NCBI GenBank assembly: GCA_031459875.1
Contig: JAVKHQ010000001.1
Location: 32,001 to 96,000 of the forward strand
DNA length: 64,000 nucleotides
Direction: 5' to 3'
Source of the DNA: Candidatus Fervidifonticultor sextus
GTDB taxonomy: Bacteria > Sysuimicrobiota > Sysuimicrobiia > Sysuimicrobiales > Humicultoraceae
The position numbers and the translations under genes are program-made. Below, one piece after another: positions 36,189-38,786 of this stretch (within the stretch, counting starts at the first letter, position 1; every line of letters starts with the position of its first letter). The notes below the pieces were generated by a model. The model had not been told where the DNA came from and made no database searches. It worked only from the letters and a program-made list of their open reading frames with translations.

Positions 36189-36224
36189 GCCGCCCGATCC
36201 CGGGCCGGCCGGCGACCGGCCACC

Positions 36225-36722
36225 CTACCAGAGGTGCGAGAACTTCGCCGCGAACCGGCGCTCCAGTTCCTCCCGGTGGAGGTGGTAGACCGGACACTCG
36301 CGCAACATGCAGACGTGCAGCGCCTGGTTGCAGAAGGCGTCGGGAACCTCCCAGCACGCAGGGTTGACGTAGTACGCGGCGCACACCCCCCTGCGCGGGT
36401 GGACGCCGGAGACATCCAGGGGCACGCCTGGCAGCGCGGGGGCCGCCGGCTTCGGGGCAGGAGCCGCCGGCGCAGGAGGCGGGAGGGGTGCCGCGATCGG
36501 GCCGGCGGCGGGGTGGGCCGGCGGCACCACGGCCGCCGGCTGCGGGACCGCCGCCCGGTTTGCCGGATCGCGGATCAGCCGCAGGATGGGCCGGTCCGCG
36601 CGCTCGTCAGCCTCGGCCCCGGAGGGCTCGGCGCCCTGGCCGGCGAGCGCTTCCATCTCCTGCGAGGCCGTCTCGATCAGATGCCTAACGCCGCGCCGCA
36701 GCTCCTCGCGCGCCTTTGGCAT
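36225..36722 (-). CDS. Hypothetical ParA partner protein with a Cys-rich C-terminal domain
   Basis: 165 aa, overlapping the parA stop, with a GAGG RBS. N-terminal LRRGVRHLI, a Pro/Ala linker, then C-terminal CAAYY..CWE....C......C....CPVY. Confidence 0.75.
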   Translation of the reverse strand: MPKAREELRRGVRHLIETASQEMEALAGQGAEPSGAEADERADRPILRLIRDPANRAAVPQPAAVVPPAHPAAGPIAAPLPPPAPAAPAPKPAAPALPGVPLDVSGVHPRRGVCAAYYVNPACWEVPDAFCNQALHVCMLRECPVYHLHREELERRFAAKFSHLW

Positions 36723-37500
36723 GGGCGATCACCTCTTGGGCCAGGCTGGCGTACTCTTTGGCGCCCCGCGAGTCGGGATTGGTGACGAACAGCGGCACGC
36801 CCTTCATCGACGACTCCACCAGCTTGATGTTGAAGTGGATCGTCGTCTGGAAGACCTTTTGGGGGAAGAAGTCGTGGATGCCTCCCACGATCTCCTTGCT
36901 GATCGTGGTCCGCGAGTCGTACATCGTCGGCAGGACCCCCAGGATCTCGACCTCGTGACCGACCTCCTCCCGCACCATCTTCAGGGTCTTGAGCAGCTGG
37001 CGCATCCCGAGCAGCGCGTAGTAGTGGGTCTGGATCGGAATGATGATGGCCTCGCACGCCACCAGCGCGTTGAGGGTCAGCAGGCCCAGCGACGGGGGGG
37101 TGTCGATGAGGATGAACTCGTAGCGTTCCCGGACGCCGCCCAGGCGCCGTCGCAGCGAGTTCTCGCGGCCGATGCGCGCGGCCAGTTCCAGTTCCGCCGC
37201 GGCCAGGTCGATGGAGGACGGAGCCACGTCCAGCCGCTTGACCGTCGTCGGGCGGATGATCGCCTCCAGGGGCAGGCCTTCCTCGTGATCGGAGCCGACG
37301 AGGACGTGGTAGATTGTACGCTCCAGCGTCGCCGGGTCGATCCCGACGCTGACCGTGGCGTTCGCCTGCGGGTCCAGGTCGATCAGCAGGGTGGCGTGCC
37401 CCGCCGCAGCGAGGGAGGCGCTGAGGTTGACGGCCGTCGTGGTCTTGCCGCAGCCGCCTTTCTGGTTGACGAGTCCGATGACCAGCGCCTGACCGCTCAC
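36685..37500 (-). CDS. ParA/Soj-family ATPase (orphan)
   Basis: Deviant Walker A NQKGGCGKTTT, DLDPQAN, IDTPPSLG and LPTMYDSRT; GTG 37500 with a GGGGGAG RBS. Confidence 0.93.
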   Translation of the reverse strand: MSGQALVIGLVNQKGGCGKTTTAVNLSASLAAAGHATLLIDLDPQANATVSVGIDPATLERTIYHVLVGSDHEEGLPLEAIIRPTTVKRLDVAPSSIDLAAAELELAARIGRENSLRRRLGGVRERYEFILIDTPPSLGLLTLNALVACEAIIIPIQTHYYALLGMRQLLKTLKMVREEVGHEVEILGVLPTMYDSRTTISKEIVGGIHDFFPQKVFQTTIHFNIKLVESSMKGVPLFVTNPDSRGAKEYASLAQEVIAHAKGARGAAARR

Positions 37501-37554: not shown

Positions 37555-37581
37555 GTTCGACCCCGTCGGAACAATATCCTG
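37555..37581 (-). promoter_or_regulatory. SigH-like promoter motif upstream of parA
   Basis: CAGG-N19-GAAC (CAGGATATTGTTCCGACGGGGTCGAAC). Confidence 0.55.
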
Positions 37582-37664: not shown

Positions 37665-38786
37665 ATGCGGGTCACCGTGAGTGTCATCAAGGCCGACATC
37701 GGCAGCGTCGGCGGTCACACCCTGCCAAGTCCTGAAGTGCTCGGTCTGGTCCGGGAGCGCGTCGCCGAAGCCTGCGGGCGCCTCCTCCTCGACGGCCACG
37801 TCTGCCACACCGGCGACGACATCTGCCTCATCATGACCCACACCCACGGCGTGGGGCACGGCCCGGTGCACCAGCTGGCCTGGGAGGCGTTCCGGGCCGG
37901 GACCGAGGTCGCCACACGCCAGGGGCTCTACGGCGCCGGACAGGACCTGCTCAAGGACGCGTTCTCCGGCAACGTGCGGGGCCTGGGTCCGGCCTCGGCG
38001 GAGATGGAGTTCGAGGAGCGGCCCAATGAGGCGCTGATCATCCTGGCGGCCGACAAGACCGAACCCGGCGCGTTCAACCTCCCCCTCTACCTGGTCTTCG
38101 CCGATCCCATGTACTCGCCCGGCCTGTTGCTCTCCGAACCCCTGCACAGCGGGTTCCGGTTTCGAATCATGGACGTGGACCACACCGCGGGAGACCGGAC
38201 CATCACCCTGGATGCCCCCGAGCGCCTCTACGACATCGCCGCGCTGCTCCGGGACACCCACCGGTTCGTGGTGGAGTCCATCTGGTCGCGGCGCTATCCC
38301 GACGAGCAGGCCGCCGCGGTGTCCACGAGCCGGCTGCGCAACATCGCGGGCAAGTACGTGGGCAAGGACGATCCGGTGGCCGTCGTGCGGGTCCAGAAGA
38401 TCTTCCCGGCCACCGAGGAGTTCGGGCCGGCATTCGCCCTGGGCCAGTTCGTCGCCGGGGATACCCGCGGCAGCCACCACCTGCCGCTGATGCCGGTGCC
38501 GATCAACACGCCGGCGTCCACCTACTTCTGCTGCCCCATGGTCTCGGCGCTGGGGATCTCGATGCACGACGGCCGGCTAGCGGCGTTCACCGACCTGTTC
38601 GGGGATCCCTTCTGGCACCGCGTGCGGGACCGGGTCGCCGACAAGGCGATGGAGATGCGCAAGCAGGGGTTCTTCGGCCCCGCGATGCTGCCCATGTCGG
38701 AACTGGAGTACGGCGGCATCGTCGCGCGGCTGGAGAAGCTGGAACGCGAGTTCACCGTGGCCAAGGTGCCGGTCGAGACCGGCTAG
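37665..38786 (+). CDS. fbp: Fructose-1,6-bisphosphate aldolase/phosphatase (class V FBPase)
   Basis: KADIGSVGGH, GDDI, GLYGAGQDLL, DKTEPGAFN and IAGKYVGKDDP. Confidence 0.96.
   Translation: MRVTVSVIKADIGSVGGHTLPSPEVLGLVRERVAEACGRLLLDGHVCHTGDDICLIMTHTHGVGHGPVHQLAWEAFRAGTEVATRQGLYGAGQDLLKDAFSGNVRGLGPASAEMEFEERPNEALIILAADKTEPGAFNLPLYLVFADPMYSPGLLLSEPLHSGFRFRIMDVDHTAGDRTITLDAPERLYDIAALLRDTHRFVVESIWSRRYPDEQAAAVSTSRLRNIAGKYVGKDDPVAVVRVQKIFPATEEFGPAFALGQFVAGDTRGSHHLPLMPVPINTPASTYFCCPMVSALGISMHDGRLAAFTDLFGDPFWHRVRDRVADKAMEMRKQGFFGPAMLPMSELEYGGIVARLEKLEREFTVAKVPVETG

Follow-up and report, generated by a model that had tools for sequence, protein, structure and literature searches.

Which protein does a ParA-type ATPase serve when the gene that overlaps its own encodes something other than ParB? 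The question is raised by two reverse-strand genes, parA2 and what we call here the partner gene, which together occupy positions 36225–37500 of a 64,000-nt stretch of the genome of Candidatus Fervidifonticultor sextus, an uncultured hot-spring bacterium (phylum Sysuimicrobiota; assembly GCA_031459875.1, contig JAVKHQ010000001.1, positions 32,001 to 96,000 of the forward strand), the whole of which is referred to below as the window. An initial annotation, made from the DNA letters alone, had read the pair as an orphan ParA with a non-ParB partner bearing a ParB-like peptide and a Cys-rich domain, and as a candidate system for positioning a cargo. Our analysis partly supports that interpretation, and its computable predictions all came out as expected. 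Across the phylum Sysuimicrobiota the parA2–partner pair is conserved in single copy as part of the core, which goes beyond chance, and we consider it probable, judging from the sequences, that the two genes encode a dedicated ParA/partner positioning module that would operate beside the canonical Soj-ParB-parS system.

A conserved parA2–partner gene pair

The partner was present in all 41 related genomes, each of which also encodes a ParA2 orthologue (69–100% identical) and a second Soj-like ParA (36–51% identical). When coordinates were compared by eye, the parA2 orthologue abutted the partner gene in 40/41 of these relatives, the exception (G038) having the two genes on separate contigs, where the partner lies at an edge, while in public loci parA2 was found directly upstream of the partner in 56/57, the remaining locus (L068) being cut by a contig end. 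Adjacency in relatives had been named in advance as a check on the annotation, which it passed. A profile of the partner C-terminal domain matched 89 of the 94 Sysuimicrobiota (CSP1-3) genomes and 53 of the 54 high-quality ones, with one full copy per genome and an additional partial match in a single genome (the genome tallies, namely the 41 relatives, the 94-genome counts and the MinC and MinD counts given below, include the unpublished genomes G013 and G022, which the alignments exclude). Full-length partner was not found outside the phylum in searches of 5.8 billion proteins and of 1.84 billion representatives. In the former, 168 proteins matched at E ≤1e-3, all of them unnamed or ‘hypothetical protein’ and all from metagenome-assembled genomes labelled Armatimonadota, ‘bacterium’ or similar; in the latter, 67 representative clusters matched, 57 of them at E ≤1e-10. 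Synteny at the public loci, counted by eye, includes fbp in 35/57 and a HAD hydrolase gene in 40/57, which indicates vertical inheritance. An anti-phage defence system or mobile element was likewise considered for the locus and rejected, since both genes belong to the core and keep their synteny with fbp and the HAD hydrolase gene.

The first gene, parA2 (36685–37500, reverse strand), starts with GTG at 37500 behind the sequence GGGGGAG, stops with TAG at 36685–36687 and encodes a Soj-like ParA/MinD-family ATPase of 271 aa. In Pfam searches ParA2 matched AAA_31 (2.6e-55, 187.5 bits, cut-off 27) and CbiA (5.9e-22, 78.4 bits, cut-off 25.4); all NCBIfam equivalogs scored under their cut-offs, the best being ParA_partition (102.3 vs 180). 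The protein is 48% identical to the Soj of its own genome, and its closest solved relatives are Myxococcus xanthus ParA (8ray_B, 7.5e-58) and Thermus thermophilus Soj (1e-52). The deviant Walker A motif KGGCGKT (37441–37461, reverse strand), intact as the annotation had described, lies in NQKGGCGKTT and has Cys at the variable position, and both of its lysines (K14 and K19) are kept in 25/25 orthologues, as are D41, D43 and N47 of Motif 2 and D133 of Walker B. In M. xanthus ParA, R238 is a DNA-binding residue (bioRxiv 10.1101/2025.03.14.642875); the equivalent in ParA2 is K226 in 24/25 orthologues and R in 1/25. By its residues, ParA2 thus looks catalytically competent and basic at the R238 position. 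The P-loop Cys (C17), which occurs in 25/25 ParA2 orthologues and is Val in the Soj of this genome, co-occurs with the Cys-rich partner. In a comparison with an RNA library, for which only assembled contigs were used, one contig of 253 nt lay on parA2 (37100–37352, with 3 differences) and none lay over the partner gene, which is no evidence either way on expression.

ParA2 had been called an orphan, and this holds locally: the parS consensus gave 0 matches in the window at ≤3 mismatches, and ParB_N is matched just once in the genome, on a different contig (C6), beside canonical soj. It does not hold for the genome as a whole, since with soj-parB on that other contig ParA2 is a second ParA, orphan in its neighbourhood only.

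The partner gene (36225–36722, reverse strand; 165 aa plus stop) starts with ATG at 36722, its protein beginning MPKAREELRRGVRHLI, and has a Shine-Dalgarno sequence, GAGGTGAT (36728–36735, reverse strand), read from the sequence inside the parA2 coding region; the GAGGT of this element is kept across the listed public loci. The annotation had placed the parA stop over the partner start. An overlap there is, although the two signals do not merely touch, the ATG lying 38 nt upstream of the stop, so that a dual-coding stretch of 38 nt (36685–36722, reverse strand) encodes both the C-terminal tail of ParA2 and partner residues 1–13. The overlap has this length of 38 nt in 54/55 loci, with the parA2 stop within partner codons 12–13 (xTT AGG). 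Among 39 distinct overlap sequences, 36 substitutions altered ParA and were silent in the partner vs 1 with the opposite effect, the others being non-synonymous in both frames (19) or synonymous in both (5). Selection in the overlap acts on the partner frame. On the strength of the 36 vs 1 substitutions the ParA2 tail is a passenger, and conservation of the partner peptide is therefore no artefact of the overlap; conservation of the partner also extends past it, through residues 14–26. The parA2 stop is preserved by a T at the end of partner codon 12 (39/39 distinct sequences) and by AGR as codon 13 (38/39). The possibility that the partner is a frameshifted or fused ParA tail was rejected, because conservation holds for the stop of parA as well as for the start of the partner, and the frame under selection is that of the partner.

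A ParB-type motif in the partner and a matching pocket in ParA2

The partner opens with a ParB-type ParA-binding motif, REELRRGVRHLI (36675–36710, reverse strand; residues 5–16, with L8, R10, G11, V12, L15 and I16). The pattern L8-x-R10-G11-Φ12-x-x-Φ15-Φ16 was found in 49/49 distinct partner N-termini (as L-x-[RK]-G-Φ-x-x-Φ-Φ), across which seven residues do not vary (R5, E7, L8, R9, R10, G11 and R13), with V, I or L at position 12, L, F, V or I at 15, and I or L at 16. AF2 modelling placed a helix at residues 2–28, with pLDDT 81–90 over the first 20 residues.

The ParA-binding motif of M. xanthus ParB consists of residues 11–19 and binds as a short helix; L11, L15, L18 and I19 are each essential for ParA binding, R13 is needed for ATPase stimulation, and efficient activation of ParA requires two juxtaposed motifs (bioRxiv 10.1101/2025.03.14.642875). 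On the ParA side, the dimer-interface pocket is made up of V116, L150, L152, L155, L187 and L192, and ParB R13 lies near Y81, E82, D110 and E117 (bioRxiv 10.1101/2025.03.14.642875). The spacing of L8/R10/V12/L15/I16 in the partner is exactly that of L11/R13/L15/L18/I19 in M. xanthus ParB, with G11 at the place of G14. The N-terminus of the ParB encoded by this genome reads ALGRGLGALIP. In a genome-wide scan for the motif near the starts of open reading frames (ORFs), the partner, ParB and six other ORFs were retrieved, of which five look spurious by eye and the sixth sigma-factor-like; in the whole genome, the motif is clearly carried near the N-terminus by the partner and ParB only.

To map residues between the two ParA proteins, ParA2 was aligned to 8ray_B, in which chain index + 19 gives the residue number. 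The pocket residues V116/L150/L152/L155/L187/L192 correspond to L104/L138/L140/L143/M175/V180 of ParA2, all hydrophobic in 25/25 orthologues, and M. xanthus Y81, D110 and E117 correspond to Y64, D98 and E105, likewise kept in 25/25. The ParB-like peptide of the initial annotation is in this way borne out on both sides of the presumed interface, and the conservation that it required of the peptide is seen throughout. At two sites ParA2 departs from the acidic residues of Soj-type ParA proteins: M. xanthus E82 is replaced by H65 in 25/25 orthologues (Asp in the Soj of this genome) and E176 by a hydrophobic residue at position 164 (Leu, Val or Ile in 25/25; Glu in that Soj). H65 and position 164 are candidate specificity determinants that might keep the two ParA systems apart. 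Co-variation between pocket and motif was uninformative because the positions are too invariant, and a co-fold of a ParA2 dimer with 2 ATP, 2 Mg and partner residues 1–60, run on our own alignments, scored 0.01 (mark 0.32), which speaks neither for nor against contact.

Architecture of the partner and its five-Cys domain

The partner gave no Pfam or NCBIfam match at E ≤1, including ParB_N CTPase and helix-turn-helix (HTH) domains; no PHROGs or PADLOC match was obtained, and in Pfam it did not match the MinE family. It appears from these searches to be an undescribed protein family. Its members share an N-terminal motif, a short RPILRL[VI]R[DE] motif and a five-Cys C-terminal domain, split by variable Pro/Ala-rich segments; the N-terminal peptide, the linker and the Cys domain had been described for the 165-aa ORF in the annotation. 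The Pro/Ala-rich linker (36405–36638, reverse strand) is predicted to be disordered (pLDDT 47–66, no secondary structure) and accounts for most of the variation in family length (72–355 aa). Within it lies the second conserved motif (36567–36593, reverse strand), of which P[IVLF]LRL[VI] was found in 41/53 partner proteins, a further 5 having a K variant; the motif has diverged in deep-branching clades. With the full-length model, Foldseek against the PDB returned one row (E 5.7) and the wide VIA search a best Z of 2.5, with nothing but generic coiled-coil matches (Z about 2). The ESM Atlas returned only the partner's own cluster (0.94), the next being at 0.76.

The C-terminal domain (36228–36389, reverse strand; GVC-x8-CWE-x5-C-x6-C-x4-CPVY...HLW) holds its cysteines at residues 114, 123, 131, 138 and 143 and has the family form, over about 55 residues, GVC-x8-CWE-x5-C-x6-C-x4-CPVY...F-x-x-K-x-x-x-x-W. 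The five-Cys pattern was seen in 52/53 partner proteins, the exception being a masked record, so that cysteine conservation, too, is as had been anticipated. AF2 modelling of the domain alone (56 sequences) gave a confident all-helical model with no strand (pLDDT 83.4, pTM 0.66). Compared with solved structures, this model yielded 0 rows in Foldseek and a best Z of 2.5 in the wide VIA search, and the sequence profile of the domain gave a best E of 0.42 against the PDB.

Relatives of the domain were found among the 1.84 billion representatives, where P0180, P0182, P0183 and P0184 matched at E 3.2e-6 to 9.6e-5. These are small proteins with one or two units of the form CWEI-x-x-C...C-AY-x5-CWEV-x3-C-x6-C-x4-CPVY, and hhalign aligned the C-terminal domain with such two-CW-like small proteins at 98.0% (E 1.7e-13, 47 columns), a remote homology in keeping with the resemblance to CW-motif domains that had been noted at the outset. 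Two of them, P0180 and P0182, scored 14.7 and 12.8 bits on NCBIfam NF045718 (‘two-CW domain’; cut-off 35), and no match to NF045718 was found for the partner (E ≤1), four family members (E ≤10) or the whole genome (E ≤1). The partner holds a single CW (C123-W124); where the relatives have two CW and seven Cys, its C-terminal domain has one CW and five Cys and may be described as a truncated two-CW-like module. It aligns with the second half of the unit (C-AY-x5-CWEV-x3-C-x6-C-x4-CPVY-x-x-x-E-x-[IL]E) and differs from the two-CW proteins in lacking the first CWE-x-x-x-C segment and in standing beside a ParA gene, which the relatives never adjoin in the metagenome contigs examined. In those contigs (L071–L080) two-CW-like proteins are encoded after riboflavin genes and beside CheW/MCP, superoxide dismutase and multihaem cytochrome genes, and the tandem two-unit form adjoins DUF5714-CMD fusion genes and CobW. 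A word-based homologue search with P0180 retrieved P0180 only, none of the papers searched dealt with the ‘two-CW domain’, and P0173, P0177 and P0179, tried as partner relatives, were rejected as repeat or low-complexity matches. A metal or redox cofactor is suggested by the redox and metal gene context of the relatives together with the Cys pattern ending in CP, and the likeliest content of the domain would be a metal or Fe-S centre.

Genomic context of the operon

The neighbour divergent from the parA2–partner operon is fbp, encoding a fructose-1,6-bisphosphate aldolase/phosphatase (FBPase_3, 4.4e-154), which agrees with its earlier identification; this gene (window 37665–38786) scored 512.8 bits on NF041126, just below the cut-off of 520. 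The convergent neighbour is a HAD hydrolase gene. Between the convergent partner and HAD-hydrolase genes lies a GC-rich palindrome (36194–36219; inverted repeat I7), possibly a bidirectional terminator; no T-run terminator was called near the operon. One sigma-70-like site was predicted, inside parA2, and a repeat and iteron scan around the operon gave chance-like pairs inside coding sequences only.

A promoter-like motif, AGGATAT-N12-GTCGAAC (37555–37580, reverse strand), precedes the parA2 start by 54 nt. In 9/9 aligned upstream regions its core columns do not vary, and a regular expression for the motif was matched before parA2 in 31/53 loci, deep clades included, 2 of these probably by chance; the strict form is unique in the genome. 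It fits the Bacillus subtilis sigma-H consensus (RNAGGAWWW, 11–12 nt, RNNGAAT), which makes sigma-H a candidate assignment. The genome encodes a SigH orthologue (G000:C24:11816-12409; TIGR02859 351.6 bits, cut-off 294.8; NF006148 368, cut-off 208), and the SigH-like promoter of the annotation thus stands as a conserved candidate; the Spo0A C-domain was not found in this genome. A looser SigH-like expression matched 8 genome sites vs 0–5 in five random genomes. The genes that follow these sites encode FtsE, a Lar_N protein, GATase, a transposase, an HTH-TPR protein and unknowns, and a SigH-like regulon was rejected, as the downstream genes have no common theme and 8 sites compare with 0–5 in random genomes. 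The site before ftsE is on contig C8 (G000:C8, L081:206-889; TIGR02673 274.3 bits vs 264.85).

MinC was above cut-off in 0/94 phylum genomes and MinD likewise in 0/94; the genome of the window (96% complete) gave no MinE and no DivIVA match and encodes FtsZ.

Proposed mechanism and alternative explanations

We propose that ParA2 would be an active, nucleoid-binding, ATP-sandwich ParA that uses the nucleoid as its matrix. The partner motif, as a short amphipathic helix, would dock in the dimer-interface pocket of ParA2 through L8, V12, L15 and I16, and R10, placed on the Y64/D98/E105 site, would trigger ATP hydrolysis and so detach ParA2 from the nucleoid in the way that ParB releases ParA. The flexible Pro/Ala linker would join this motif to the five-Cys domain, which, with its putative metal or Fe-S centre, may cluster the partner or attach it to cargo. 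Since two motifs are needed in M. xanthus, dimerisation or clustering of the partner would be expected here, and the Cys domain is the obvious candidate for bringing it about. The cargo might be a DNA site, the divisome or another protein assembly, or there may be none, the pair then acting as a pure switch.

Several points weigh against this proposal. On the side of the interface, the motif sits in a long Arg/Glu-rich predicted helix and not in a Gly-rich flexible tail, G12 of ParB is Arg in the partner, H65 and the hydrophobic residue at 164 could mean a different use of the pocket, and the canonical Soj pocket and ParB motif are so similar that cross-talk or another pairing is possible. Contact between ParA2 and the partner is presumed, and the two juxtaposed motifs needed in M. 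xanthus would call for a partner dimer, which is likewise presumed. As to the remainder of the partner, metal binding is argued solely from the cysteines and the gene context of distant relatives, the charge of the C-terminal domain is nearly neutral (counted by eye from the translation), and no cargo, DNA site or iteron turned up around the operon.

Four other explanations were considered. A second DNA-segregation system, in which the partner would be an unconventional centromere-binding protein functionally akin to the small ParG/omega-type proteins, whose Cys domain, of a zinc-type DNA-binding kind, marks a chromosomal site for ParA2 to segregate, is in our estimation unlikely. It would account for a Soj-like ParA2 with a basic residue at the R238 position and for the ParB-type motif of the partner, whose size and layout recall the type Ib centromere-binding proteins, and a GTTCg-N8-CGAAC-like dyad can be seen by eye in the conserved sequence upstream of parA2. 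However, a canonical ParABS is already present in the genome, no repeats or iterons were found around the operon, and the upstream motif in its strict form has a single occurrence in the genome; the C-terminal domain, moreover, lacks a basic character and gave no match to a DNA-binding fold or family, and its distant relatives are stand-alone proteins in redox and metal gene contexts.

Positioning of the division site or of another protein cargo in the manner of MipZ or PomXYZ, with the partner linking a ParA2 gradient to the divisome and filling the Min gap, seems to us improbable to a like degree. The gap itself, with MinC and MinD both at 0/94 and FtsZ without a MinE or DivIVA match in the genome at hand, favours such a role, as do the phylum-wide core status of the pair and the occurrence of ftsE among only 8 genome places with the SigH-like motif. 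Against these observations, many bacteria without Min use no ParA for division placement, the motif count barely exceeds chance (8 vs 0–5), and neither sequence nor synteny links the pair to FtsZ or the divisome, its neighbours being fbp and a HAD hydrolase gene.

A cargo-free regulatory switch is doubtful. Here the Cys domain would sense redox state or metal and toggle ParA2 through the ParB-like peptide, and ParA2 would act elsewhere, for example in replication initiation; B. subtilis Soj acts on DnaA. The five invariant cysteines and the invariant Cys in the ParA2 P-loop fit such a switch, as does the presence of superoxide dismutase, AhpD-like CMD, cytochrome and CobW genes beside the distant relatives, and a redox- or metal-dependent dimer could supply the paired motifs that ParA activation needs. 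Set against this, a cofactor or redox reaction is hypothetical, and a long variable linker is more typical of tethers and adaptors. Elements of these explanations can be combined with the positioning module, in that the Cys domain might be a metal- or redox-dependent dimerisation switch, analogous to the CTP-driven closure of the ParB clamp, that would unite two ParA-binding motifs only when conditions are right and by which ParA2 would position the divisome or another assembly under SigH, in a phylum with FtsZ but without MinCDE or DivIVA. The result would be a redox-gated ParA system made by grafting a ParB peptide onto an unrelated sensor; we regard this combination as a long shot, about as doubtful as the cargo-free switch.

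That the two proteins are merely co-transcribed and make no contact, the N-terminal helix serving self-association or a third protein and its likeness to ParB being coincidental, is the least probable explanation: no complex model was obtained, and an amphipathic helix could form a coiled coil of the kind retrieved at Z about 2 in the fold search, but the 38-nt overlap is strictly kept across the phylum, all five motif positions match in 49/49 N-termini, the ParA2 pocket is conserved, and genome-wide the motif is clearly carried by ParB and the partner alone.

Comparison with known systems and significance

With chromosomal ParA-ParB the pair has in common a Soj-type ParA, its hydrophobic pocket and its Tyr/Asp/Glu site for the arginine, and a partner that starts with the ParB motif L-x-R-G-Φ-x-x-Φ-Φ. 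The differences lie in ParA2 in H65 and the hydrophobic residue 164 in place of acidic residues and in the P-loop Cys, and in the motif of the partner in its Arg-rich character and its predicted place in a long helix. In contrast to ParB, moreover, the partner lacks the ParB_N CTPase, HTH and dimerisation domains, and has a Pro/Ala linker and a five-Cys domain instead; parS was not found in the window.

Orphan ParA/MinD ATPases with dedicated adaptors include McdA-McdB, PomZ-PomX/Y, ParC and PpfA with chemoreceptor adaptors, and MipZ (PMC10241942, PMC11407121). As a general rule, the partners of ParA/MinD ATPases make contact with the ATPase by a charged N-terminus while the remainder binds cargo (PMC10241942), and the layout of the present partner fits this rule. 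The pair resembles these systems in that the ATPase, of the ParA family, is encoded together with a partner other than ParB, whose charged N-terminus would be predicted to activate it while the remainder of the protein would bind cargo; the long disordered segment of the partner is also a feature of McdB. The partner differs from these adaptors in having no apparent sequence relation to them and in a peptide of the canonical chromosomal ParB type, not a system-specific one, and the pair differs in being a phylum core feature that stands outside any organelle operon. McdB- and PomX-type adaptors are defined by biochemical function and offer no sequence family by which to recognise them.

Type Ib plasmid partition systems (ParF-ParG, delta-omega) are likewise two-gene operons, with a small ParA followed by a small partner whose N-terminal tail is activating and whose C-terminal domain is compact. 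The parA2–partner pair, by contrast, is chromosomal, probably inherited vertically and in conserved synteny, with no centromere repeats found near the operon, and where type Ib partners have a ribbon-helix-helix, the C-terminal domain of the partner is predicted to be helical and is Cys-rich, has no Pfam match and gave nothing above Z 2.5 in the fold search.

In the main text of the article describing the phylum (PMC11604079), the terms Soj, partition, cell division, FtsZ and sporulation do not occur, and ‘ParA’ is found only within ‘parameter’; our literature search on ParA and CSP1-3 found nothing related. While the ParA/partner module is a type already known, a partner family that reuses the ParB peptide within such a module would, as far as the sequences indicate, be new.

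If the proposal is correct, the peptide by which ParB docks on ParA has been moved naturally onto an unrelated protein, and the pair would show how new ParA positioning systems can originate and how two near-identical pockets can coexist in a cell without cross-talk. Being compact (271 aa plus about 130–190 aa), it would suit an in vitro study of specificity, for which H65 and L164 are candidate determinants, and it would provide the first functional handle on an uncharacterised family of Cys-rich domains. It would also bear on the basic organisation of the cell in a widespread, uncultured phylum that is Min-less.

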